The notes beneath the pieces were generated by a model. That model searched no databases and was not told the DNA's origin. It worked only from the letters and a program-made list of their open reading frames with translations. From Escherichia coli (GTDB lineage: Bacteria > Pseudomonadota > Gammaproteobacteria > Enterobacterales > Enterobacteriaceae), in the NCBI RefSeq assembly GCF_044324785.1, contig NZ_CP172127.1: DNA of 64,000 bases; one strand, given 5' to 3'. Positions 3,080 to 46,384 of the stretch are shown piece by piece. Made by a program: the position numbers and the translations under genes. Numbering within the stretch: position 1 is the stretch's first letter; each line of letters opens with the position of its first letter.

Positions 3080-4453
3080 TTACTGGTTTTCAGCCAGCTG
3101 ACGATCGTGGCGGCGCTTAAACATCCAGCCAATCAACAGCACAACAATCCACGCGAAACCGACATACAGCGAGATACGCGTATCAGGGTGATAACCAATC
3201 AACCCGATAATAAAGAGCAGGAAAATCAAACCGCCGATGGTCGTTGCTACCCCACCCGGCACTTTAAATTTCAGCGCCTTAACTTCTTCTGGCGGCAAAC
3301 GGCGACGGAAGGCAATTTGCGACAGCAGGATCATAATCCACACCCACACCGTGGCGAAGGTTGCCAGCGAAGCGATTACCAGGAAGACGTTTTCCGGCAT
3401 GATGTAGTTCAGATACACCGCAAACAATAGCGCGGTAGTCATCACCAGCACCGTAACCCACGGAATACCGCGACGCGACGTTTTGCTGAAAATTTTCGGC
3501 GCGCTGCCCTGCTCTGCCATACCGTGGAGCATACGGCCTACGCCAAATACATCACTGTTAATTGCCGACAGCGAAGCGGTCAGCACAACAAAGTTAAGAA
3601 TGCTGGCGGCAAAGGTAATGCCCATATGCTGGAACGTCAGCACAAACGGGCTACCGGCAGTGCCAACCTGATTCCACGGGTAGATAGACATAATGACGAA
3701 CAGCGTACCAACATAGAACACCAGAATACGCATCGGCACGGAGTTAATCGCACGCGGAATCGATTTCTCAGGATCTTTCGCTTCACCGGCGGTAATCCCG
3801 ATAATTTCGATCCCACCGTAAGCAAACATCACCATTTGCAACGACATCACCATCCCAAGCCAGCCGTTACTGAAGAAGCCGCCGTTGCTCCACAGGTTAT
3901 GAATACCGGTCGGTTGCCCGCCGTTGCCAATCCCCCAGATGATGATGCCGAAACCGGCGACAATCATGATGATGATAGTGGCGACTTTAAAGAACGAGAA
4001 CCAGAATTCCAGCTCACCGAAGACCTTCACGCTCATCAGGTTTACGGCGCAAATGATCAGCACCACGCTCAGTACCCAAATCCAGTGCGGCACCGTCGGG
4101 AACCAGACACCCATATAGATACCAAAAGCGGTCACATCGGCGATGGCGACAATAAGGATTTCAAAGCAGTAGGTCCAGCCGGTAATGTAACCTGCCAGCG
4201 GGCCGAGGTTTTCCTGCGCATAACGGGAAAAAGAGCTGGCGGCCGGGTTATGTACCGACATTTCCCCCAGCGCACGCATAATGATATACGCTGCGATACC
4301 ACCGATAATATAGGCCAACAACACGCTCGGACCAGCCATTTTGATGGCGTCTGCCGAACCGTAAAACAACCCGGTGCCAATTGCTGAACCCAGTGCCATA
4401 AAGCGTATGTGGCGGGTACTTAGCCCACGCTTTAGCTTGTTCTTACTTTCCAT
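3080..4453 (-). CDS. proY: Proline-specific permease (APC family amino-acid transporter)
   Basis: [45 protein letters not shown]... recognised as ProY; multi-pass membrane protein. Confidence 0.93.
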
Positions 4454-4476
4454 CAATTCCTAACCCATCAACACAA

Positions 4477-4507
4477 TAAAAAACCACGGGGCATCGCAGC
4501 CCCGTGG
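4477..4507 (-). terminator. Putative intrinsic terminator after brnQ
   Basis: Perfect hairpin CCACGGGGC-atcgca-GCCCCGTGG at 4484-4507, followed on the minus strand by a U-run (plus-strand A-run 4477-4483). Confidence 0.55.
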
Positions 4508-4528
4508 TTAAAACAAATGTTCAGTGAT

Positions 4529-5848
4529 TTAGTGAGCGCTGGAGGTCACCTGACGACCTGCCGCGCGATCCCAGATAATGGCCAGAACCACCATCACCAC
4601 TGTTGGCATTAACCACGCCAGACCTTGTTCGGCCAGCGGTAAACGCTGCGCCCAGGACGGTAAGATATCGCTGAATGCAGATGCTTTGATCCCGTCGAGA
4701 ATACCAAAAAGCAGGCTGATAAACATCGGCGGAGCAATCACGCGGGACGAATTATGCCACCATGAGCGTGTAAAACTTAATACAACCAGTGCGATACACG
4801 GCGGATAAATGGCGGTCAGCACCGGTACGGAGATCTGAATCAGCTGGCTCAAACCGAGGTTAGAAACCACCATCGAGAAGCCGCCGAGGATAAACACCAG
4901 CGTACGATAAGAGAGCGGTACGTACTGGGCAAAGAATTCTGCACAAGCACAGGTCAGGCCAACTGCCGTGACCAGGCAGGCGATGAAGATTAACGCCGCC
5001 AGCAGGAAGCTACCGCCGCCGCCAAAGGTGTGCTGAACGTAAGCATGCAGAATAGCAGCGCCGTTTGCAGACTGATCGACCAACGACGCGCTGTCTGAAC
5101 CCAGACGGAACAGCGCCAGGTACAGCAGAGTAAGACCAACACCCGCCATCAGGCCAGCCCAGACGGTATAACGGGTCAGCAGACGCGCTTCAGTAACGCC
5201 ACGAGAACGCGCCGCGTTAACAATAACGATACCAAACACCATCGCGCCCAGCGTATCCATGGTCAGATAGCCGTTGACGAAGCCGTTAGAAAACGCAGCG
5301 TTTTGATAAGCCTCAGTCGCCGTGCTGATAGAACCCGCTGGCCAGACAATTGCGGCAACAGACAGGATGACCAGCGCGATAATTTTCAGCGGCGCAAGGA
5401 AGTTGCCCACGGTATCCAGCAGCTTGCCCGGATAGAGCGAAACCAGAATAACGATAGCGAAATAGACCAGGCTGTAGATAAACAGCGGCAGCGCGGAATC
5501 ACCCGTCAGCGGCGCAATCCCCACTTCAAAAGAAACGGTAGCTGTACGCGGCGTAGCGAAAAGCGGCCCCACAGCTAGGTAACAAACCGTTGCCAGCAGC
5601 ACGCCAGCGACTTTACCGATTGGCGTGCTGAGGCTGTCAACACCGCCGCCAACTTTTGCCAGCGCCACTACCGTTAGTACCGGCAGACCAACGGCAGTAA
5701 TGAGGAAGCCGAATGCCGCAGTCCAGACGTGTTCGCCTGCCTGCAAGCCGACCATTGGAGGGAAAATAATGTTACCTGCGCCGACGAACAACGCAAATGT
5801 CATAAAGCCCAGAGCGATGATATCGCGCGATCTTAATTGATGGGTCAT
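4529..5848 (-). CDS. brnQ: Branched-chain amino acid transporter (LIVCS family)
   Basis: 439-aa [45 protein letters not shown]... recognised as BrnQ. Confidence 0.93.
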
Positions 5849-6198
5849 AAATCATACTGCCTGTGGATGTGGTGTTGTAACGTTAAATTTTTGTGCCAAT
5901 CCCTGGGGATGATACAGCGGTATATTTAAACAATTTTAGCGGGAAATACTCCCAACCAGGCGCGGCGAAGAATAGTTTTTCGATTTACCGCGTTAATGCA
6001 GTCAGTATGACAGCACCTGAAGCGCAATTTAAACGCTTATAACGTTTTAAAGCAAGGAGGGATCTAAAAACCAGAGGTATATAGCGATAAGAAATCGCCA
6101 ACCAGTATAAAACACTATTTCCGTGAAAAAGACATGGCTAATCATGCGAACAAAAAATCACCAACCGTTGTAAAATCTAACGCCCGTATTTTGACTGC

Positions 6199-6228
6199 AA
6201 AGAAAATAAGCCAGCATCGGCTGGCTTA
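6199..6228 (-). terminator. Intrinsic terminator of the phoBR operon
   Basis: Hairpin AAGCCAGC-atcg-GCTGGCTT followed on the minus strand by a U-tract (plus-strand agaaaat), directly after the phoR stop. Confidence 0.6.
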
Positions 6229-6254
6229 TGGCAATAAAAGATGACAAAGGCGGG

Positions 6255-7550
6255 TTAATCGCTGTTTTTGGCAATTAAACGTTCCGGGATAACAAAACTG
6301 AAACGTGTTCCTTTTCCTACTGTACTCTCAATATTCAGGCGACTTTCGTGATGATTCACCGCATGTTTCACGATCGCTAACCCTAATCCGCTACCGCCGG
6401 TTTGCCGGGAACGCGCTTTATCAACGCGATAAAAACGCTCGGTCAGGCGCGGAATATGCTCCGGTGCAATGCCCGGTCCGTTATCTTCAACGCTAAATTC
6501 GGCACCGTGCGGCACTCGCTGCCAGCGTACGGTGATATGCGTGCCTTCAGGCGTATGATTCACGGCGTTATAGACCAGGTTCGAAATCGCACTGCGTAGC
6601 TGATCTTCGTTGCCAGACACCTTGAGGCCGTTATCTATCTCAAAGGTAAATGTCTGTTTTTTCTGACTCAGAGTCTGAGCCTCGCGCTCAACAACGCGCA
6701 GCATCATCGGCACATCAACCTTTTCATTGAGCAAATGCGTCGGTGCGGCTTCTATTTTCGACAGCGTCAGCAATTGCTTCACCAACCCTTCCATCCGCTG
6801 GGTCTGCTCGCGCATGGTGTGCAACGCTTTTTCACGTACCGCGCCTTCCAGCGGTTGCTCATCCATCATCTCCAGGTAACCCTGTAACACGGTCAATGGC
6901 GTACGTAACTCATGGCTCACGTTGGCAAAAAAGTTACGCCGCGCCCCTTCCAGTTGATGCATTTGCGTGACATCACGCGCCACCATGAGCAACTGTTTGT
7001 GGGTATAAGGCATGACGCGAATTTCCAGATGCCGCCCGGTGTTGAGCACCAGATTGAGCGGGCGAGAAAAATCACGCATTTTCAGATATTGCGTAAACTC
7101 CGGGTAACGCAGCAGGTTAAGGATGTTCTGCCCGTTATCTTCCGGCCAGCGCAAACCAAGAATCTGTTGCGCCAGACCGTTACACCAGAAAATACCGCCC
7201 TCTTCCGTGGTCAGCACCACCGCGTCGGGTAGCGACTCCGCGCCGCTACGAAAGCGTTTAATCAGATTGCCCAGTTCACGGCGGCGTTTTTTATTTCGCA
7301 GCTGCATCTGGTGTAAGCCGTATAGTAGCGGTTCCCAGCTACCACGCCCCGGTGGCGGGGTCATACTACGATCCACCCACAGCCACCATGAAAGGCGCAA
7401 TAAATTCCAGAAATGCCAGATAAGCAGTCCCGTTACCGATGCCAGCAAAAACCAGGGCAGGTAACCAAAAAATGCACCCAGGATGAAAGCCGGGAGGCAA
7501 CAAAGTAGCAGCTCCAGCACCAGCCTTTTCCACGACAGCCGTTCCAGCAC
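6255..7550 (-). CDS. phoR: Phosphate regulon sensor histidine kinase
   Basis: 431-aa ORF with N-terminal membrane segments and a C-terminal HisKA/HATPase region ([20 protein letters not shown]); recognised as PhoR. Confidence 0.95.
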
Positions 7551-16752: not shown

Positions 16753-19037
16753 TGTTTTTCCTCAAGCCGGTGACGCGCTTCACTGCGAATTTTCCGCGTT
16801 GCCCCTGTTTTCACTAAATCACGTAACAGCGAAAGATCGGGTTGATCGACAAATAAGAGTAATGATGGATCCTCTTTTAACCACGTCGTTTTCACATCGG
16901 CAGCCAACTGTGGATTATTAATAACCAACGCCCGATCCTGAGGCTCAGTCAATGTCGTTAACAAAGACGCCGGGGTATGTGCGTTGCGCAATGCCGTTTG
17001 GCGCAAATGATCATTGCGACTTTGCAGCAATGCACGCCACCATTCATCATCTGATTTATCTTTTATCGTAGCCAGTTCCGCAAAAATATCGCTATCCTCA
17101 CTGTTCCAGCGGTGTAGTCCTCTTTCACTTTGCCTACGGGTGCTATTTTTCATACTGACAACAGCCAGCGCCCAGTCAGAGTTGAAGCGATACTGTTGAT
17201 CGAGTTTGTTGATAATTCCGGAAGGTAAATCTTTATTATCAAATAATTGGTTACGCATTCGATAGCGGTATTCAGCGGGTAAATCAACCAGTAAATCAAT
17301 GGCATTATTTAACATCTCTTCGTCAACAACACCATTATCAATCAGCGCCAGCTGTACTTCATAGACTTGCTCTTGATCTTCTTGCCGTTTGCTCATCATT
17401 AAATTTAATGTGCGTTGCCATAATTGTTTTTTATATTCCAGCGGCAACAATTTATCGCGTGCCAGCTCATCCCAGACGGAGGGAATATCATGCTGAGTGA
17501 GTAGATAACTAATCACTTCCTTCGACGTCAGATAACGCGCACCTTCGCGTAAATTGTGCACATCTTCCTTTGCCAGAGACAGTTGACGCGACTCAGGTAA
17601 CGCTATCAATAACGCCTTCACGATATTTTTATTTTCTTTATTATCCAGATACATTTGTTCTGCGATACGTTCAATATCCTCTGTACGCAGGGTTGCTGAC
17701 AGTTGAGTAATTTTTAGTTCAGTAAGCGTCCGGGCTAATGCTTCACGAACTTTGAGTGATTTATCTTTACTCAACATCACAGCTTGTTGTGCGATTAAAT
17801 CTGCTCCGGTAATTCTTTCGCGTAACTCCGGGTCTTCACTATTTATCAACTCATCGACCACTGCAGTCGGAACCAGCCAGGCGTAATCGTAATGGCTAAT
17901 TAATGTCTTGCGCACACTGAGAAAAGGGCTATGACTTAATGCCGCAACAATATCAGGAGAAAGATTATCCTGTCTGGCCTGCTCCAGCTGTACGCTCTCG
18001 ACGGGTACAGACATTAATTTTTTATTCACTTCGGCGGAAATGTTACTGTTTTTAACCAGCCCTCTGGCAACAGCTTCATCTTTAATTAATTCATCGGTAA
18101 GCAAATGCATCTGTTGAGCGGGCCAGGACTGCGCCATCGATTCACGCGTCTGGTCATCGGGGTGCTGTAGCAGTTGCAGCATAACGGCGGTTGACAAACT
18201 TTCTATATGAGTCAGAAAACGTGCCACCAGTGGATCTTCATGCTTTATTTTATCCGCAGGGAAATTATCGAGTTTCCCCGTTTCAATCCATTTTAATTTC
18301 TCATTAATTTCAGGAGCGGCTTTATCTCGAAAAAGAGGTAAACCCTGAACGATATTGTCTGCGACGCTGTCATAGTCAGGATACGCATTGGAAATATTAT
18401 CGGTTTCGATTTCACTATGATCATAAAGATTAGGCGTCACCAGTGAATAGGCTTTTTGAATATTCTCATCCCAGTTATATTCTTCACCACTTCCATCTTC
18501 ATTGATATAAAATTCAGCTTTAATGACTTCAAATTGCGTTGCTTTATCGGAAACAATAATGCCTCGCGCACTAATTCCCTTCATCACTTCAAAGTTATGA
18601 TCATTGTAATCAGCATAAACTAAACCTTTCGCTGTCATCTGTCCTTTGACATACGCGAAATCATGATTAATAAAGTTATCGACAATAACATTACCTAATA
18701 CAATCAGATGACCATTACCTGACAGATAATCATCATAATCGCCGGAAATCGTTAAATTACCGTTCACCACCAGTTTATTTTGATTGCTGAAGTTAGCGGG
18801 TAATGATAGGTCACCATTATGATAATACCAGCGGATATTATCTTTTAGCATATAAGCAGCTTCCATACTATCGTCGGTTGCCGCTTTAACCACGTTGCGC
18901 TCATCTGCCGTCATAAGATGAAAGTCAGAGGTGATAAGGTCCTCGCTACTGATCCACTCTGTGGCACATGCATTGCCAGTCATAAAAAACACGACCATAC
19001 AGATGACCAATATTTTAATTCTATTCATAATCTTCAC
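16749..19037 (-). CDS. Hypothetical 762-aa exported protein with Sec signal peptide, N-terminal Gly/Asn-rich probable beta-rich segment and C-terminal helical (HEAT/LRV-like) repeats
   Basis: N-terminus MKIMNRIKILVICMVVFFMTGNACA has a basic n-region, hydrophobic core and Ala-X-Ala-like cleavage site. The C-terminal half shows recurring D/P...LR...A...L patterns (SEDPELRERITGADL, SLKVREALARTL, DHLRQTALRNAHTPASLLTTL). AT-rich relative to its flanks. Not recognised as any K-12 protein. Confidence 0.7.
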   Translation of the reverse strand: MKIMNRIKILVICMVVFFMTGNACATEWISSEDLITSDFHLMTADERNVVKAATDDSMEAAYMLKDNIRWYYHNGDLSLPANFSNQNKLVVNGNLTISGDYDDYLSGNGHLIVLGNVIVDNFINHDFAYVKGQMTAKGLVYADYNDHNFEVMKGISARGIIVSDKATQFEVIKAEFYINEDGSGEEYNWDENIQKAYSLVTPNLYDHSEIETDNISNAYPDYDSVADNIVQGLPLFRDKAAPEINEKLKWIETGKLDNFPADKIKHEDPLVARFLTHIESLSTAVMLQLLQHPDDQTRESMAQSWPAQQMHLLTDELIKDEAVARGLVKNSNISAEVNKKLMSVPVESVQLEQARQDNLSPDIVAALSHSPFLSVRKTLISHYDYAWLVPTAVVDELINSEDPELRERITGADLIAQQAVMLSKDKSLKVREALARTLTELKITQLSATLRTEDIERIAEQMYLDNKENKNIVKALLIALPESRQLSLAKEDVHNLREGARYLTSKEVISYLLTQHDIPSVWDELARDKLLPLEYKKQLWQRTLNLMMSKRQEDQEQVYEVQLALIDNGVVDEEMLNNAIDLLVDLPAEYRYRMRNQLFDNKDLPSGIINKLDQQYRFNSDWALAVVSMKNSTRRQSERGLHRWNSEDSDIFAELATIKDKSDDEWWRALLQSRNDHLRQTALRNAHTPASLLTTLTEPQDRALVINNPQLAADVKTTWLKEDPSLLLFVDQPDLSLLRDLVKTGATRKIRSEARHRLEEKQ

Positions 19038-36452: not shown

Positions 36453-37647
<1,195 letters not shown>

Positions 37648-38025
37648 AAAGCACGTGAACACACACACAGAAAGAAATAACAAAAACACAATATTTCAAT
37701 ACGTTAATGAAAGCGTTAATTTTAAAACATAGACCATGAAAATATAAAACAACCATAACAGACAAATAATGTATCAATAAGCAATGAACTTTAAGTTATT
37801 CACTTTTTGAAAACGTCACCAAATCCCCAAAAACAATAATCTATGGCTATAAATAAAAATTAAAAATATTTTCAATGAATATAAATTTATTGCTATTTCT
37901 ATTACAAAGATGTCCTGGCCTCTCTTTCATTCTCTTCTTGTCAACATCGCGACAACTTTCGTAAAACATCCCCACCCTGCTTCAGGTATACTATGCCCCT
38001 CGATTCCACAAACATCAGGCAGACC

Positions 38026-39039: not shown

Positions 39040-39891
39040 TTACCCCGCCCGATAAAACGGTTTATCCCCAAGGATCGTCGCCCGATGCATTATCCGCCGC
39101 TGTGGCAGGTAATCCGCATTGGCATAGTGCTGGGTTACGCGGTTATCCCAAATCGCAATATCATTTGGTTGCCAGCGCCAGCGCACCTGAAACTCCGGTT
39201 TGGTGATGTGGGCAAACAAAAAACCTAACAAGGCTTCGCTCTCTTTCTCGCTGACATCAACAATTCGCGTGGTAAAGCCTTCATTCACAAACAGCGCCTG
39301 TTTACCGCTCACCGGATGCGTTCGCACCACCGGATGTAGCAACGGCGGATTTTTCGCGACCGCCTCGCGCCAGCGTTGATGCTCCTCCTCCGTTTTGCGG
39401 TATTTGTATTCCGGGAACGATTTACGGAAATCATGCTCCGCACGCAGCCCGCTCAACAGCTGGCGGAAGGGAACAGAGAGCGCCTCATAGGCCGCAATGC
39501 CGCTGGTCCAGAGCGTATCGCCGCCGGTTGAGGGTAACTCTTTCGCCGCCAGAATCGCCCCAGCAGGAGGCGTTTCAATAAATGTCACATCGGTATGCCA
39601 GTTGTCGTTATCCGGCGGATTATCGTTATGAGTATCCAGTACGATAATCTCGTCAACCCCTTCGGCATGAGGGTAAACAGGATGAATATGCAGTTCGCCA
39701 AAACGTTGGGCCAGCGCGCGTTGCTGCTGCGGCGTAATGGCCTGTTCACGCAGAAACACCACCTGATGGCGCAGTACCGCATGGTAAAGCTGTTCAAACT
39801 GGTTATCACTTAACGGGCGCGTCAGGTCAGCACCCGTAATTTGTGCGCCAATATACGGCCCCAGCGGGGTAATGCTCAGACGTTCACTCAT
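39040..39891 (-). CDS. tauD: Taurine dioxygenase (alpha-ketoglutarate dependent)
   Basis: 283-aa [51 protein letters not shown]... recognised as TauD. Confidence 0.95.
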
Positions 39892-40715
39892 TGTACTTCT
39901 CCATGCCAGGGCGTCAGGCGGCGCTGTAACGCGCGCAGACCCAGTTCTAAAAGAAAGGCGATAATCGCAATCACCGCGATCCCCGCCAGCACCACGTCAG
40001 TCGCGAGAAATTCACCCGCTGACTGAACCATAAATCCTAAACCGCGCGTCGCGGCAATCAGCTCCGCCGCCACCAGCGTAGACCAGCCCACACCCAGACC
40101 AATACGTAATCCGGTGAGGATTTCCGGCAGCGCGCCGGGCAAAATGACAAACCACAGCACCTGCGCACGGCTGGCACCCAGAGACTGGGCGGCACGAATG
40201 CGAACCTGCTGCGCGCTTTTCACCCCCGCCAGCGCCGACATCGCCACCGGTGCAAAAATCGCTAAATAGATCAGTAAGATCTTCGAGGTTTCGCCAATAC
40301 CAAACCAGATCACCATCAGCGGCAAATAAGCCAGCGGCGGCACCGGACGATAAAGCTCGATTATCGGATCCAGAATGCCGCGCACCGTCGGGCTTAGCCC
40401 CATGGCGATCCCGACCGGAATACCGATCAACACCGCCGCGAGTAGCGCCAGCAAAATGCGCGTCAGGCTGGCGGCCAGATGCTGCCACAAGGTGGCGTCC
40501 ATAAATCCTTGAGGTCCGGCAATAGTAAGCAGTTTTGCCAGTACCTGTTGCGGCGGCGGTAAAAACAGCGGGCTAATCAGTTGCAGCGCCGCCACTGCCC
40601 ACCATACAGTGAGTAAAATCGCTAACGTGCCAATGCTTAAGGTCACCTGACGCGAGAGCGGCCAGCGCCATTTCAGCCGACGCGAATGCAGTTTTTCATT
40701 GATGAGCACACTCAT
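39888..40715 (-). CDS. tauC: Taurine ABC transporter permease
   Basis: 275-aa membrane ORF; start overlaps the tauB stop and its stop overlaps the tauD start by 4 bp each; recognised as TauC. Confidence 0.93.
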
Positions 40716-41479
40716 GAGAATGCCTCCCGTTGCTCAAATACGCGGCTTAAAACATATTCGCGCATGGCGATGAATTGTGGATCGGACTTGATGCTGCGGC
40801 TCGGTTCCCCGGCAACAAAGCGGCGGGCGAAGTTGAGCGGCAGCCGCTCCAGCACACGGCCAGGGCCGGGTGAAAGCAGAACCAGTTCGGTTGCCATAAA
40901 CACCGCTTCTTCTATATCGTGGGTAATCAACAGCACCTGCTTACCTGTCTCCTGCCAGAGTTTCAGCAGCAGAGTTTGCATCTGGTCGCGGGTGAAGGCG
41001 TCCAGCGCACCAAACGGTTCGTCGAGTAATAACAGCTGGGGATTCGCCGCCAGCGCGCGGGCAATCCCCACCCGCTGACGTTGACCGCCGGAAAGCTGCC
41101 AGATGTAGCGTTTTTCTGCCCCTTCCAGCCCCACTTTTTTCAGCATATGGTGCGCGATTTCCAGTCGCTGCATTTTCTCAACACCTGCCAGTTGCAGGCC
41201 GAACGCCACGTTGTCCCGTACATTGCGCCACGGTAGCAGCCCTTCATTCTGAAAAACTACGCCACGCTCTGCTCCCGGCCCCTCAATGCGTTTGCCCGCC
41301 AGTTGAATACTGCCGTGCTGATAAGGCACAAAACCGGCAATCAGATTCAGCAGGGTGGTTTTACCGCAGCCGGACGGCCCCAGCACCACCAGTAGCTCGC
41401 CGCTTTCCAGCGTCAGGTTGATATCTTCCAGCGCCGGTTTGCCGCCATAATCGGCATAGAGATGAGAGATTTGCAGCAT
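40712..41479 (-). CDS. tauB: Taurine ABC transporter ATP-binding protein
   Basis: 255-aa ORF with Walker A (GPSGCGKTT) and ABC signature ([15 protein letters not shown]); recognised as TauB. Confidence 0.95.
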
Positions 41480-41491
41480 CTGCGCCTCCTT

Positions 41492-42454
41492 TTATTGCAC
41501 GAAGCGCGAGGTAACGTACTGGCTGTAATCGTTCGCTACAGCCGGGACTTTGCCCTGCTCTTTCAAAAACTGCGCGGTGTCGATGATCGCTTTGTTCACC
41601 GGTCCGATCAGTTCTGCCGTTTGCTGCTGCGGCGTCAGATAGGTATTCCCCTTCACCAGCCCCGGAACGTCACCTTCAGGCACGCCGCTTAACCGCGCCA
41701 GTTTGCTGATGTTTTCAGGCTGTTTCAGCCACGCGTCTGGGTTAGCAATGTACGGTTGCTGAGCATCGATGGCGCTTTTGGCGAACGCTTTCACGACCTC
41801 TGGATGTTTCTCGGCAAAATCTTTGCGCACCACCCAGACGTCCAGTGTCGGCGCGCCCCACAGCCCGACCTGTTCAGAATCGGTCAGCACCTTGCCGTCT
41901 TTTTCCAGGGCGTTAACCGCCGGTGCCCAGACATAAGCACCATCAATGTCTCCCCGTTGCCATGCGGCGATAATCGCGGGTGGCTGCAGGTTCACTATCT
42001 CCACTTGTCCGGGTTTTATACCCCAGTGTTTCAGCGCCGCCAGCAGGCTGTAGTGGGTGGTGGAGATAAACGGTACGGCGATGCGTTTGCCAATCAGATC
42101 TTCCGGTTTGCTGATAGTTTTCTTTACCACCAGCGCTTCGGAGTTACCCAGTTTTGACGCCAGCAAGAAGACTTCAATCGGCACCTGTTGGCTGGCTGCA
42201 ACCGCTAATGGGCTGGAACCGAGGTTGCCGATTTGCACGTCGCCTGAAGCCAGCGCCCGCACGATGCTGGCTCCGCTGTCAAACTTACGCCAGTCAACGC
42301 TCGCCCCACTCTCTTTAGCAAAGGTGTTATCAGCCTGAGCCACTTTCGCCGGTTCAGCGGAGGTTTGATAGGCCACGGTGACGTTCACCGCCTGTGCCTG
42401 AAAAGCGATGAATGCCAGTGCGGCAAGAAGTGTGTTACGCGATGAAATTGCCAT
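41492..42454 (-). CDS. tauA: Taurine ABC transporter periplasmic binding protein
   Basis: MAISSRNTLLAALAFIAFQAQAVNVTVAYQTSAEPAKVAQ... recognised as TauA; internal Met chosen to give 320 aa. Confidence 0.92.
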   Translation of the reverse strand: MAISSRNTLLAALAFIAFQAQAVNVTVAYQTSAEPAKVAQADNTFAKESGASVDWRKFDSGASIVRALASGDVQIGNLGSSPLAVAASQQVPIEVFLLASKLGNSEALVVKKTISKPEDLIGKRIAVPFISTTHYSLLAALKHWGIKPGQVEIVNLQPPAIIAAWQRGDIDGAYVWAPAVNALEKDGKVLTDSEQVGLWGAPTLDVWVVRKDFAEKHPEVVKAFAKSAIDAQQPYIANPDAWLKQPENISKLARLSGVPEGDVPGLVKGNTYLTPQQQTAELIGPVNKAIIDTAQFLKEQGKVPAVANDYSQYVTSRFVQ

Positions 42455-43060
42455 GATTGTCTGCTCCCCTGTCTTGTTATAGGAGCAGTATTCAGGAATA
42501 AAAACATTCATTAAAAGAATTAGTCGTTATCGCACAGATGATTTTATTCTTAGCAAAAAAGCGGCAAAGGAAAGATTAAATATGCAATTACACCCACTCT
42601 GACAATTCAGTAAGTTACTGCACTTCATTTTATTAATGCATAAACAAGCAGATTATAATGTCTTTTATTTTATTAACAGCAATACATATAATGAAACCAT
42701 CATATTCACATCGCATATATAACTGTGTCATTCTCAATCAACCACATAATATATTCACATCATGTATATAATCCATATTTGCGCATAGAACATATTTTTA
42801 AATGTAATTAATTGACAAACTAAATCACATCTAAATACAATATATAAAACAAAATAACTATACAAACCAAACACACAAACACTTAACATATGAACTACAT
42901 AAAAGATTACGCAGTCGTATCCACGTACCTGAAAGCCCCTTATTTTTCAGCTATCAGTAATTTTTAACACTTAAATATTAGCATCTATCTGCGCCAGAGA
43001 TTACGTCTCTGCGGGCATCGTTGTGCTTGTAGTATAATAAATAAAATGGAGTGTCATTAA

Positions 43061-43732
43061 GTGGATAAGGTTTTAGATTCAGCCATCCTTTCTTCAGCAA
43101 ATAAAAGAAAGGGTATCCTTGCTATTGGCGCACATCCTGACGATATAGAATTGGGCTGTGGCGCGTCGCTCGCTCGTCTTGCAAAAAAAGGGTTCTATAT
43201 TGCAGCGGTAGTGATGACATCGGGTAATTCCGGCGTGAGTGAAATAATTAATCGACATCAGGAATCACTCGAAGCATTAAACATTTTGGGGTGTCAACAA
43301 ACTATTCATTTTAATTTTGCTGACACCCGTACTCATTTACAACTTAATGATATGATTTCCGCTCTGGAAGATGTCCTTAAAAAACAAATTCCGTCTGATG
43401 TAGAAATCATTCGTGTATACACCATGCATGATGCTGACCGCCATCAGGATCATCTTGCAGTCTATCAAGCCTCAATGGTTGCCTGTCGCGCTATTCCGCA
43501 AATTCTCGGCTATGAAACGCCAAGTACCTGGCTTTCATTTATGCCACAGGTTTTTGAATCCGTGGAAGAGGAATATTTCACCATTAAACTGGCTGCATTA
43601 AAACAGCATAAGAGCCAGGGCCATCGTGATTATATGCGCCCGGATCGCCTGCGTGCAGTTGCACAATTTCGCGGGCAACAGGTCAATAGCGATCTGGGTG
43701 AAGGCTTTGTAATTCATAAAATGATTCTTTGA
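43061..43732 (+). CDS. yaiS: PIG-L/LmbE-family N-acetylglucosaminyl deacetylase-like protein
   Basis: ORF from GTG at 43061 with GGAG 9 nt upstream; AHPDDIELGCGA motif typical of the PIG-L/LmbE deacetylase fold; recognised as YaiS-like. Exact start is uncertain. Confidence 0.8.
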   Translation: MDKVLDSAILSSANKRKGILAIGAHPDDIELGCGASLARLAKKGFYIAAVVMTSGNSGVSEIINRHQESLEALNILGCQQTIHFNFADTRTHLQLNDMISALEDVLKKQIPSDVEIIRVYTMHDADRHQDHLAVYQASMVACRAIPQILGYETPSTWLSFMPQVFESVEEEYFTIKLAALKQHKSQGHRDYMRPDRLRAVAQFRGQQVNSDLGEGFVIHKMIL

Positions 43733-43741
43733 GCAAATTGC

Positions 43742-44938
43742 ATGAAAACCTGGATATTTATCTGTATGTCCATAGCAATGTTGCTATGGTTTTTAAGTAC
43801 GCTAAAACGTAAACCCAGTCAAAAGAAAGGCTGTATTGACGCCATTATACCTGCGTATAACGAAGGCCCGTGTCTGGCACAGTCACTGGATAATCTGCTG
43901 CGTAACCCTTATTTTTGCCGGGTAATTTGCGTAAACGACGGCTCCACGGACAATACCGAATCGGTCATGGAGGAAGTCAAACGCAAATGGGGCGACCGCT
44001 TTGTTGCCGTCACGCAAAAAAATACCGGTAAAGGTGGTGCGCTGATGAATGGCCTCAATTACGCCACCTGCGACCAGGTTTTTTTAAGTGATGCCGACAC
44101 CTATGTTCCGCCCGATCAAGACGGAATGGGCTATATGCTGGCAGAAATTGAGCGCGGTGCCGATGCCGTAGGCGGCATTCCCTCTACTGCGTTGAAAGGC
44201 GCGGGTCTGTTACCACACATCCGCGCGACCGTAAAGTTGCCGATGATTGTTATGAAGCGCACGCTACAGCAGCTCGTGGGCGGCGCACCGTTTATTATCA
44301 GCGGTGCCTGCGGGATGTTCCGTACTGATGTATTGCGTAAGTTCGGTTTCTCGGATCGTACTAAAGTCGAAGACCTTGATCTCACCTGGACATTGGTGGC
44401 AAACGGCTACCGTATTCGGCAGGCGAATCGCTGCATCGTATACCCGCAGGAATGCAACAGCCCGCGTGAGGAGTGGCGTCGCTGGCGGCGTTGGATTGTG
44501 GGCTACGCGGTCTGTATGCGCCTGCATAAAAGACTTTTATTTAGCCGCTTCGGTATCTTCAGTATATTTCCTATGCTGTTGGTTGTGCTTTATGGCGTTG
44601 GGATTTATCTCACTACCTGGTTTAATGAATTCATCACCACCGGGCCGCATGGTGTGGTGTTGGCAATGTTTCCGCTTATCTGGGTCGGCGTAGTTTGTGT
44701 TATTGGTGCTTTTAGCGCCTGGTTTCATCGTTGCTGGTTGTTGGTGCCTTTAGCGCCGCTTTCCGTTGTGTATGTATTATTAGCTTATGCCATCTGGATT
44801 ATTTATGGACTTATTGCCTTTTTTACTGGACGCGAACCTCAGCGCGACAAACCCACCCGCTATTCCGCACTGGTGGAAGCGTCAACCGCTTATTCCCAAC
44901 CTTCTGCTACAGGAACTGAAAAACTATCTGAAGCTTAA
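43742..44938 (+). CDS. yaiP: Family 2 glycosyltransferase with C-terminal transmembrane segments
   Basis: 398-aa ORF; GT2-like N-terminal domain (AIIPAYNEG, VICVNDGSTDNT, LSDADT) followed by hydrophobic helices; recognised as YaiP-like. Confidence 0.85.
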   Translation: MKTWIFICMSIAMLLWFLSTLKRKPSQKKGCIDAIIPAYNEGPCLAQSLDNLLRNPYFCRVICVNDGSTDNTESVMEEVKRKWGDRFVAVTQKNTGKGGALMNGLNYATCDQVFLSDADTYVPPDQDGMGYMLAEIERGADAVGGIPSTALKGAGLLPHIRATVKLPMIVMKRTLQQLVGGAPFIISGACGMFRTDVLRKFGFSDRTKVEDLDLTWTLVANGYRIRQANRCIVYPQECNSPREEWRRWRRWIVGYAVCMRLHKRLLFSRFGIFSIFPMLLVVLYGVGIYLTTWFNEFITTGPHGVVLAMFPLIWVGVVCVIGAFSAWFHRCWLLVPLAPLSVVYVLLAYAIWIIYGLIAFFTGREPQRDKPTRYSALVEASTAYSQPSATGTEKLSEA

Positions 44939-45497
44939 TGTTAAAGAGAAAAACATTCAGATTGCAGACCAGGTAATTATTGATGAAACTGCAGGTGAAG
45001 TTGTTATCGGCGCGAATACCCGTATTTGTCATGGTGCCGTTATTCAGGGTCCGGTAGTGATTGGCGCAAACTGCCTGATAGGTAATTATGCGTTTATTCG
45101 TCCTGACACAATAATCAGCAATGGCGTAAAAATTGGTTTTGCCACCGAAATTAAAAATGCGGTTATTGAAGCGGAATCAACGATTGGTCCGCAATGTTTT
45201 ATTGCTGACTCGGTAGTTGCAAACCAGGCATATTTGGGCGCACAAGTACGTACCAGTAATCATCGTCTGGATGAACAGCCTGTGTCTGTTCGAACTCCAG
45301 AGGGAATTATCGCTACCGGATGCGATAAATTAGGTTGTTATATCGGGCAGCATTCACGCCTTGGCGTACAAGTTATTATTTTGCCCGGGCGAATTATTTC
45401 CCCGAACACGCAACTTGGCCCACGCGTGATTGTAGAACGTAATTTACCTCCCGGAACTTATTCACTCCGACAAGAACTTATCCGTACAGGAGATTAA
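44787..45497 (+). CDS. yaiX: Hexapeptide-repeat (left-handed beta-helix) acyltransferase, apparently intact
   Basis: 236-aa ORF with repeated [LIV]-G-x-x-x-x hexapeptides (VIGANTRICHGAVIQGPVVIGANCLIGNYAFIRPDT...). The only in-frame ATG starts (44787, 44805) lie inside the 3' end of yaiP, so the true start is uncertain. Confidence 0.7.
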   Translation: MPSGLFMDLLPFLLDANLSATNPPAIPHWWKRQPLIPNLLLQELKNYLKLNVKEKNIQIADQVIIDETAGEVVIGANTRICHGAVIQGPVVIGANCLIGNYAFIRPDTIISNGVKIGFATEIKNAVIEAESTIGPQCFIADSVVANQAYLGAQVRTSNHRLDEQPVSVRTPEGIIATGCDKLGCYIGQHSRLGVQVIILPGRIISPNTQLGPRVIVERNLPPGTYSLRQELIRTGD

Positions 45498-45498
45498 A

Positions 45499-46272
45499 AT
45501 GATAAAACGGACGTTATTAGCGGCGGTCATTTTTAGCGCATTGCCCGCTTATGCCGGGTTAACTTCCATTACCGCGGGCTACGATTTCACCGATTATTCT
45601 GGCGATCATGGCAACCGTAATTTAGCGTATGCTGAACTGGTGGCGAAAGTTGAAAACGCAACGCTGCTTTTTAATCTTTCCCAGGGGCGTCGTGATTATG
45701 AAACTGAACATTTCAATGCCACTCGCGGTCAGGGTGCGGTCTGGTATAAATGGAATAACTGGCTGACAACCCGAACGGGTATTGCCTTTGCGGATAATAC
45801 GCCGGTCTTTGCCCGCCAGGATTTTCGTCAGGATATTAACCTGGCACTGTTGCCAAAAACGCTTTTCACGACCGGTTATCGCTACACGAAATATTACGAT
45901 GATGTCGAAGTCGATGCCTGGCAAGGCGGCGTATCACTCTATACTGGCCCGGTGATCACCAGCTATCGCTATACCCATTATGACTCCAGCGATGCAGGTG
46001 GTAGTTACAGCAATATGATTTCCGTGCGTCTGAATGACCCCCGCGGCACTGGTTATACTCAACTATGGCTAAGCCGCGGCACAGGTGCTTACACCTATGA
46101 CTGGACGCCAGAAACACGCTACGGCAGCATGAAGAGCGTCAGTTTGCAACGTATTCAACCGCTGACTGAGCAACTTAATCTCGGGCTGACGGCAGGTAAA
46201 GTGTGGTACGACACCCCAACCGATGATTATAACGGTCTGCAACTTGCAGCCCATCTGACCTGGAAATTCTGA
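45499..46272 (+). CDS. yaiO: Outer-membrane beta-barrel protein YaiO
   Basis: 257-aa ORF MIKRTLLAAVIFSALPAYAGLTSITAGYDFTDYSGDHGNRNLAYAEL... with signal peptide and C-terminal Phe; recognised as YaiO. Confidence 0.9.
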   Translation: MIKRTLLAAVIFSALPAYAGLTSITAGYDFTDYSGDHGNRNLAYAELVAKVENATLLFNLSQGRRDYETEHFNATRGQGAVWYKWNNWLTTRTGIAFADNTPVFARQDFRQDINLALLPKTLFTTGYRYTKYYDDVEVDAWQGGVSLYTGPVITSYRYTHYDSSDAGGSYSNMISVRLNDPRGTGYTQLWLSRGTGAYTYDWTPETRYGSMKSVSLQRIQPLTEQLNLGLTAGKVWYDTPTDDYNGLQLAAHLTWKF

Positions 46273-46384
46273 TTCCTTCTGCCGCCCGCTATCCGGGGCG
46301 GCCTTCCCTGCCGATTAGCCCCACCACCTTTCCTCTTTGTTTTCCGACCACATTCACCGGATAAATTTTATTCTCCAGTGTTAT

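Follow-up and report, generated by a model that had tools for sequence, protein, structure and literature searches.

The AT-rich intergenic region between tauA and yaiS of Escherichia coli as a probable divergent control region at the edge of an accessory gene cassette

Between tauA and the divergently transcribed yaiS of E. coli lies a long and AT-rich stretch of DNA, which raises the question of whether it controls the genes on its two sides or is little more than filler at the border of imported genes. We analyzed this spacer within a window of 64 000 nt of one E. coli chromosome (the whole stretch of DNA examined) by comparing its extent, composition, variation between strains, promoter-like sites and predicted structure with the rest of the window, with other E. 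coli genomes and with published data on the K-12 counterpart.

Extent, composition and accessory status of the spacer

The positions of the spacer, of its flanking genes and of the surrounding accessory segment in the window are as follows.

41492–42454, minus strand: tauA, taurine ABC transporter periplasmic binding protein (open reading frame list and RefSeq orthologs in W3110, N3, ABU 83972 and MG1655)
42455–43060, no strand: tauA–yaiS divergent intergenic region, 606 bp, 30.5% GC
43061–43732, plus strand: yaiS, PIG-L family deacetylase of 223 aa, first gene of the cassette
43061–46272: cassette yaiS–yaiP–acetyltransferase–yaiO
42493–46356, no strand: segment of 3,864 bp, swapped for 164 bp in strains in which tauA adjoins frmR (BLAST junctions against E302, O157:H7 and BL21)

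According to RefSeq, tauA starts with the ATG at 42454 (MAISSRN..., with a signal peptide), and yaiS starts with the GTG at 43061. An earlier note on this DNA had let the AT-rich region run from 42512 to 43060 (about 550 bp), because an in-frame ATG at 42511, upstream of the RefSeq start, was taken for the start of tauA. The AT-rich stretch itself is real, but its left edge lies at 42455 and the spacer measures 606 bp; this corrected left boundary is one practical gain of the analysis. The K-12 counterpart has 615 bp, and none of four RefSeq records (W3110, MG1655, N3 and ABU 83972) contains an annotated feature inside the spacer.

That long, strongly AT-biased non-coding DNA separates tauA (minus strand) from yaiS (plus strand), as the earlier note had put it, was borne out. 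The GC content of the spacer is 30.5% compared to 51.1% for the 64-kb window, the GC minimum of the window, calculated for stretches of 606 bp, falls in the spacer, and only 0.09% of all such stretches are equally low. When we compared 50 kb with strain N3, the spacer was the longest of all gaps between annotated genes (606 bp, followed by 525, 406 and 351 bp). Both the AT excess and the TpA richness typical of H-NS-bound DNA were found, with 69.5% AT compared to 48.9% in the window and 11.9% TpA steps compared to 4.6%.

The spacer is part of an accessory segment. We observed the spacer together with yaiS in ~4,250 of 5,426 complete E. coli genomes (~78%), while in the remainder it is absent or replaced. 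In 594 genomes, ST131 strains among them, tauA adjoins frmR at a distance of 305 bp; in O157:H7 and O55:H7 the similarity ends at the same point, and the place of the segment is taken by a two-component system, a uhpC-like gene and genes of ABC transporters; BL21 shows an IS1-mediated deletion beginning at 42564, and further strains have IS1 and IS3 insertions in or near the spacer region. For yaiO–yaiS a strain-specific insertion adjoining tauA has been listed before (Higashi 2016, PMC4720273, S6 Table). The 3,864-bp segment begins at −13 of the tauA promoter, runs through the spacer and the four-gene cassette, and ends 84 bp past the latter. Its left junction coincides exactly with the upstream edge of the candidate tauA −10, and the only direct repeats found at both junctions are 7-mers. 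The cassette encodes the PIG-L deacetylase YaiS, the GT2 glycosyltransferase YaiP, a hexapeptide acetyltransferase and the outer-membrane barrel YaiO. Citrobacter sp. FP75 has the four genes in another context with 77.6% nucleotide identity; the similarity to the window begins exactly at the yaiS start codon, and the region upstream of yaiS in this strain shows no similarity to the spacer. A phage or plasmid origin of the spacer was considered as well and rejected, as we obtained no true matches (five ‘plasmid’ matches are megabase-sized and apparently chromosomes).

Divergence between strains and promoter-like sites

Compared to K-12 (383841–384455) the spacer aligned with 100% query coverage and 86.5% identity, decreasing to 71% over 42640–42730. 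Among 4,365 matching genomes the spacer identity was at least 99% in 4, between 95 and 99% in 612, between 90 and 95% in 499 and between 80 and 90% in 3,251. We sampled 12 E. coli haplotypes, which fall into three clades (a K-12-like clade, a clade of the window with N3, DG351-2 and FDAARGOS_448, and an ABU 83972-like clade), and divided the spacer into three conserved (B) and two variable (V) blocks, listed here with the differences between window and K-12 and with one motif inside the first block.

42455–42592, minus strand: conserved block B1, tauA leader, candidate −10 and the region expected to carry Cbl/CysB sites; 4 differences in 138 bp (97% identical, 3% inter-clade divergence)
42546–42569, minus strand: 24-bp motif TTCTTAGCAAAAAAGCGGCAAAGG, candidate Cbl/CysB recognition element (local alignment 20/24, shuffle p ~0.001)
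42593–42806, no strand: variable AT-rich core V1, ~25% GC, within the K-12 promoter-island stretch; 56 differences in 224 positions (25% divergence)
42807–42903, plus strand: conserved block B2, near-consensus promoter and G-free, CA-rich leader; 6 differences in 97 positions (6% divergence, flanks 20–25%)
42904–43022, no strand: variable segment V2; 24 differences in 120 positions (20% divergence)
43023–43060, plus strand: conserved block B3 with TATAAT (43033–43038) and GGAG (43048–43051); 0 differences in 38 positions (0–1 in 38 bp between clades)

The block edges were drawn post hoc on the same 12 sequences, and the Fisher p values (4e-9, 7e-5 for B2 and 1e-4) are descriptive only. As a local neutral yardstick we used the neighboring genes, for which we obtained a dS of 0.34–0.5 for yaiS (dN/dS ~0.1) and of 0.08–0.28 for the tau genes. 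Because the local synonymous divergence is high, V1 and V2 look unconstrained and B1–B3 look constrained in these alignments, which yields a map of putatively constrained bases covering 270 of the 606 bp.

At the tauA end, B1 contains the tauA Shine–Dalgarno sequence GGGGAG (42464–42469) and the candidate −10 AATACT (42487–42492), so that transcription of tauA would start at about 42480. It had been predicted that the spacer must hold the tauA promoter, which is supported by the 97% conservation of these 138 bp while haplotypes differ by 20–25% farther in. In cassette-less strains the sequence upstream of −12 is replaced by an alternative one with 50 of 108 identical positions; this second version (~46% identical) occurs in ~1/5 of E. 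coli genomes. The motif TTCTTAGCAAAAAAGCGGCAAAGG is common to both tauA-upstream alleles in the same register and with the same junction offset, and for a start at 42480 it would span −66 to −89. A second element, TAATTCyTTTA near −35, is also in register between the two alleles. The tauA promoter was reportedly characterized by van der Ploeg et al. in 1997, who described several CysB sites and a Cbl footprint spanning −112 to −68. The strain-to-strain replacement upstream of −12 could matter when sulfur-starvation responses are compared among E. coli lineages.

Part of the remaining spacer corresponds in K-12 to promoter island 383994_309, yaiS(−)/tauA(+), which is associated with predicted foreign genes (Panyukov & Ozoline 2013, PMC3661553). 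Promoter islands bind RNA polymerase and give little full-length RNA, only short oligonucleotides (PMC3661553). In our alignment K-12 383994–384302 maps to ~42610–42905 of the window, and with 100% coverage and 86.5% identity the spacer is orthologous to the listed island. The association with horizontally acquired genes expected of such islands was found as well, in the form of a cassette present in ~78% of the genomes and also in Citrobacter. The K-12 spacer is moreover among the genomic-SELEX sites of the RpoD holoenzyme, where it is flagged ‘HNS’ (Shimada 2014, PMC3946193). The definition of an island rests on PlatProm (predicted starts packed at extreme density over 300 bp or more), for which we used a relaxed count of hexamer pairs as a proxy. 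The highest count for 300 bp is 17 sites, a value at the 99.6th percentile for the window, and the whole spacer has 24 sites compared to 23.6 in shuffled sequences of matched composition. A stricter consensus scan found 2 sites compared to 4.0 in shuffles. By the proxy count, the promoter-like density of the spacer is purely compositional. The hexamers TTGAGA-16-TACAAT, listed as tauA-ward in K-12 (Shimada 2014, PMC3946193) and located ~265–290 bp upstream of tauA in V1, are no conserved promoter, because the −10 reads TGCGAT in the window.

These data bear on a reading of the locus in which only the tauA promoter and the ribosome-binding region of yaiS have a function and the rest is filler at an imported edge, with H-NS and RNA polymerase binding incidentally to its AT-richness. 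The divergence of V1 and V2 (20–25%) is indeed similar in magnitude to, if lower than, the local synonymous level of 0.34–0.5, the promoter-like density equals the compositional expectation, the K-12 tauA-ward −10 is destroyed in the window, and other strains tolerate IS1/IS3 insertions and the IS1-mediated deletion. However, B2 is conserved well under the neutral level and its promoter is unchanged in all but one of the 12 sampled haplotypes, which is why we consider it unlikely that the spacer is filler.

Leader, curvature and small reading frames

The plus-strand features in and next to B2 are as follows.

42812–42841, plus strand: sigma-70 promoter match TTGACA-18-TACAAT (11 of 12) facing yaiS (promoter scan and alignments)
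42815–42891, plus strand: G-free run of 77 nt; no other single-base-free run of the 64-kb window exceeds 48 nt
42890–42967, plus strand: 25-codon open reading frame MNYIKDYAVVSTYLKAPYFSAISNF; coding is improbable, and any role would be that of an upstream open reading frame acting independently of its sequence

The hexamers TTGACA-18-TACAAT are assigned to yaiS in K-12 by the RpoD genomic-SELEX table (Shimada 2014, PMC3946193); among the sampled haplotypes only P276M differs, which has extra spacer bases. Over 42820–42897 the C/G ratio is 17. Closer to yaiS, a SELEX peak of the RpoS holoenzyme has been placed at K-12 383868, 28 bp upstream of yaiS (Shimada 2017, PMC5493296), a position that maps to ~43033 in our alignment and thus on the TATAAT of B3. 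In V2 the alignments contain a conserved dyad, CAGAGA-N5-TCTCTG (42995–43011), whose center precedes by ~43 bp the transcription start predicted for this TATAAT, at ~43045.

One could read B2 and the 25-codon frame as a leader-type attenuator of the yaiS operon: transcription would start at ~42848, the unstructured G-free leader would load ribosomes (at the frame starting at 42890) or Rho, and translation of the upstream frame would gate yaiS. Promoter and leader are 94–98% conserved while the flanks diverge by 20–25%, the G-free run (77 nt) exceeds every other single-base-free run of the window, and the frame, the most persistent of nine spacer frames of at least 20 codons, retains ATG, stop codon and 25-codon length in all but one of the 12 haplotypes, in the K-12 clade despite two frameshifts, a compensating +1/−1 indel pair. 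Against this, the frame is preceded by no Shine–Dalgarno sequence, 7 of the 8 codons that differ between the window and ABU 83972 carry nonsynonymous changes, the stop codon is gone in strain UTME-8, and similar ‘preservation’ is seen for three of the nine frames. The MNYIKDYAVVSTYLKAPYFSAISNF peptide was absent from a collection of 15 billion proteins and matched no Pfam or NCBIfam family; we regard the frame as probably non-coding. This is in line with the former statement that the spacer has no open reading frame of convincing coding character; the 25-codon frame shows no sign of purifying selection, and we rejected the small frames as genes. The folding of the putative yaiS leader is not better than that of shuffles (z = −0.88). 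A long-range pairing between the start of the upstream frame and the yaiS ribosome-binding region was suggested by RNAalifold but rejected (−14.5 compared to −14.7 kcal/mol in shuffles, no covariation). The plus strand of the spacer contains no intrinsic terminator, the only terminator-like hairpin being weak and on the minus strand, Rfam covariance models gave no match at E ≤ 1 over 41500–44000, and the portion of the supplementary text of the Adams 2021 3′-end mapping that we consulted names no yaiS or tauA 3′ end. The supplementary files that we searched for tables on transcription start sites, 3′ ends and H-NS yielded only primer lists or nothing for yaiS and tauA. We regard an attenuator as improbable, and hold just as little confidence in the wider view that 42807–42903, rather than being a silenced pseudo-promoter, genuinely controls a cryptic surface-polysaccharide cassette under particular conditions, with leader and upstream frame gating Rho or translation and H-NS as an outer layer.

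The earlier note had called the spacer low-complexity and had suggested, from its length and composition, intrinsically curved DNA bound by nucleoid proteins that may silence yaiS–yaiO. We calculated k-mer diversity (k = 4–8) and zlib size and compared both to dinucleotide-preserving shuffles; diversity and compressibility matched the shuffles (z −1.4 to +1.4), so the description as low-complexity DNA had to be given up. Tandem Repeats Finder detected no tandem repeats in the spacer, and the sole repeats are three dispersed copies of 21–24 nt (ATATTCACATC...TATATAA) at 42699, 42748 and 42824. Repeated acaca/caaac motifs had also been described. CAAAC does occur more often than expected (4 compared to 1.3, p ~0.02), but ACACA does not (2 observed, 1.9 expected), and the motifs cited stem from one CA-rich tract at 42863–42882; the string quoted at the time lies at 42866–42899. 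The density of A-tracts in the spacer is 2.2-fold the window average, and one segment, 42480–42605, which covers the tauA promoter and the putative Cbl-site region, is moderately bent (8th percentile of the end-to-end ratio); both would favor curvature as the feature that draws nucleoid proteins. Yet AA/TT dinucleotides show no periodicity at 10–11 bp in the spacer, the mean bend angle is under the window mean, and in a wedge model the ratio of end-to-end to contour length over 42560–42925 is 0.984–0.990, straighter than ~80–94% of the window. The controls of this model behaved as expected, with 0.34 for phased A6 tracts and 0.98 for unphased tracts, although the absolute values are approximate. 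The AT-rich core thus belongs to the straighter DNA of the window, and recruitment by intrinsic curvature appears very unlikely.

Finally, we can hardly credit the idea that the minus-strand frame 42889–42755 (MLSVCVFGLYSYFVLYIVFRCDLVCQLI...) encodes a small hydrophobic protein resembling type I toxins, with an antisense RNA from the plus-strand promoter: although its codons 1–28 lie within conserved B2, its 5′ end would be crossed by transcription from that promoter and it appears as a hypothetical protein in a few older annotations of genomes, its hydrophobicity follows from the C-free, T-rich strand, its C-terminus varies (30, 35, 44 or 45 aa), the minus strand upstream has neither a Shine–Dalgarno sequence nor a promoter-like site, the terminator-like hairpin lies just upstream of the frame, and it has no Pfam or NCBIfam match and no RefSeq annotation.

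H-NS, a working model and comparison with known systems

The claim that the spacer is bound by nucleoid proteins holds for its K-12 ortholog: island 383994_309 is H-NS-bound in all three compiled ChIP sets, namely those of Grainger, Kahramanoglou and Oshima (PMC3661553). The binding of H-NS and of RNA polymerase is taken here from the K-12 literature, and these data stem from a haplotype that differs by ~15% from that of the window; for the window haplotype (~85% identical) H-NS binding is presumed from base composition. The best match to the high-affinity H-NS motif TCGATAAATT is TCAATTAATT with two mismatches (42806–42815), which runs into the −35 hexamer of the distal promoter, and matches to this motif are no commoner in the spacer than in shuffles. 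In the literature that we searched we found no report of a rise of yaiS–yaiO in an hns mutant. The strong conservation of the near-consensus promoter in B2 is not easily squared with a region that is silenced and nothing else, and suggests expression of the cassette under certain conditions.

Starting from the observed sequence identity, composition, conservation pattern and accessory status, we consider it likely that the spacer is a divergent control region, in which H-NS-bound AT-rich DNA separates the tauABCD operon, which belongs to the core genome, from an accessory cassette of four horizontally acquired genes. In this model the 138 bp adjacent to tauA would be a promoter of the conventional activator-dependent kind, on which Cbl/CysB act when sulfate is scarce. 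The other ~470 bp would be AT- and TpA-rich DNA of foreign type, which binds RNA polymerase and H-NS in K-12 and has many −10- and −35-like hexamers because of its AT-rich composition. H-NS might polymerize across the AT-rich stretch and into yaiS, and might occlude or trap RNA polymerase at the distal TTGACA-18-TACAAT and the proximal TATAAT, which would keep the cassette quiet. The C-rich and G-free leader past the distal promoter may in addition let Rho terminate those transcripts that escape. A silencing of yaiS–yaiO by H-NS is plausible, and a role of Rho is inferred from the G-free leader.

For K-12 the locus is already known as AT-rich, H-NS-bound DNA edging acquired genes. It is an ordinary, unusually strain-variable example of this class, a textbook case whose significance beyond housekeeping is small.

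Several known systems resemble the locus. The first is the Cbl/CysB-dependent tauABCD promoter itself, as the 138 bp upstream of tauA share 97% identity with those of K-12, the strain in which the promoter was mapped; here, however, the promoter fills less than a quarter of the spacer. A similar arrangement is found in the ssuE–elfA intergenic region of K-12, where the other Cbl-activated operon faces a fimbrial operon of H-NS type. There, too, AT-rich DNA separates a sulfate-starvation operon from divergent genes for surface structures, and the region is likewise listed as a promoter island (996773_328); in a direct comparison its sequence showed no significant similarity to the tauA–yaiS spacer, nor did we find a significant common Cbl motif with the ssuE promoter. 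With the promoter islands (Shavkunov 2009; Panyukov & Ozoline 2013) the spacer shares an orthologous locus, AT-richness, dense promoter-like sites by the proxy count, adjoining predicted foreign genes and, in K-12, binding of H-NS. It differs from the K-12 island 383994_309 in that its haplotype is only ~85% identical (71% over 42640–42730) and in that its motif density, by the proxy count, is purely compositional. Xenogeneic silencing by H-NS, as at the ybdO promoter (Higashi et al. 2016), offers a further parallel: AT-rich DNA lies upstream of acquired genes, the divergence between strains is raised and the position next to a core gene is conserved. H-NS-bound upstream intergenic regions of E. 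coli are known to diverge faster between strains (Higashi 2016, PMC4720273). Compared to the medians of 0.016–0.022 given there, the divergence of the tauA–yaiS spacer is far higher (15% overall, with a yaiS dS of ~0.5), and it looks like the result of ancient alleles or imported segments rather than of faster local mutation.

A replaceable segment beside tauA

Window 42493-46356 (3,864 bp), which carries the AT-rich tauA-yaiS spacer and the yaiS-yaiO cassette, is polymorphic: comparison with loci from other genomes (L085, L086 and L087) showed that it may be present, absent or replaced by other DNA. In 594 genomes, ST131 among them, 164 bp replace this segment and tauA adjoins frmR. O157:H7 and O55:H7 carry another island at the same left junction, composed of a response regulator, a MASE1 kinase, a uhpC-like gene and an ABC transporter, and BL21 shows an IS1-mediated deletion at the tauA-yaiS locus.

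The cassette itself (window 43061-46272) encodes a deacetylase, a membrane GT2 glycosyltransferase, an acetyltransferase and an outer-membrane barrel. This gene set resembles a small module for exopolysaccharide synthesis and export; the papers found report no function for it. The same four genes occur in one Citrobacter species (sp. FP75) with 77.6% nucleotide identity, where they sit behind an unrelated AT-rich spacer of 410 bp:

Locus L005 (Citrobacter sp. FP75), 4001-7212: four-gene cassette, products of 223, 398, 230 and 270 aa

The next-closest relative of YaiS among the species-representative matches listed is from Stenotrophomonas and only 48% identical.

Divergence of yaiS and the tau operon

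Two overlapping reading frames lie at the start of the cassette:

Window 43061-43732, plus strand: yaiS, intact ORF of 223 codons
Window 43598-43717, minus strand: 39-codon ORF, antisense to the yaiS 3' end

The yaiS ORF is intact at this length in the window and in 11 of the 12 sampled E. coli strains, and its Citrobacter homolog likewise has 223 codons; the shortened product of 185 aa is restricted to K-12. Despite the intact ORF, RefSeq labels yaiS a C-terminally truncated pseudogene in all sampled non-K-12 records. The antisense ORF is the counterpart of the K-12 small protein gene ykiC and is annotated in the nearest strain as 'hypothetical protein' only.

The yaiS allele shared by the window and N3, a strain of the same clade, differs from all others at dS ~0.5 with dN/dS ~0.12. 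Strains that share 97% identity in the spacer are no exception to this divergence, which implies recombination breakpoints near the start of yaiS. On the other side of the spacer, the tau operon (window 39040-42454) is itself a mosaic. Its 100-bp windows are between 87% and 100% identical to K-12, and its dS varies with gene and strain pair between 0.08 and 0.28; Higashi 2016 quote E. coli medians of ~0.055, which these values clearly exceed.

Promoter alleles and sequence elements of the spacer

Upstream of position -12 we observed two alleles of the tauA promoter with an identity of only ~46% (window 42493-42600 compared to 5594-5700 of L087, which carries the other allele). The break between them falls at the exact edge of the candidate -10 element AATACT. 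Two elements are common to both alleles and lie in register, namely a 24-bp motif (TTyTTAGmAAAAAAkCGGCAAwGG, plus strand) and TAATTCyTTTA near -35.

Towards yaiS the spacer contains two further elements:

Window 42815-42891, plus strand: G-free run of 77 nt
Window 42995-43011: perfect dyad CAGAGA-N5-TCTCTG, conserved

Nowhere else in the 64 kb is a single base missing over so long a stretch (the second longest such run has 48 nt); the G-free run lies within a conserved block, directly downstream of a near-consensus promoter. The proximal TATAAT predicts a transcription start ~43 bp downstream of the dyad centre, and the dyad could be a binding site for a yaiS regulator.

Other low-GC spacers and the ssu operon

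The strongest predicted curvature anywhere in the window (37481-37606, end-to-end/contour 0.77) is found within the low-GC ehaB-hemB spacer (37501-38025, 525 bp), upstream of the autotransporter gene ehaB. The window's top density of promoter-like hexamer pairs, 20 per 300 bp, occurs in another low-GC trough at ~18540-18840, around the end of mak and the mak-rdgC spacer.

A comparison of the tauA-yaiS spacer with the K-12 ssuE-elfA spacer (locus L097) found no sequence similarity. The K-12 ssuEADCB operon, the other Cbl-activated operon, faces a fimbrial operon and, like tauABCD, also a listed promoter island, here 996773_328. Both sulfate-starvation operons therefore adjoin H-NS-type spacers.
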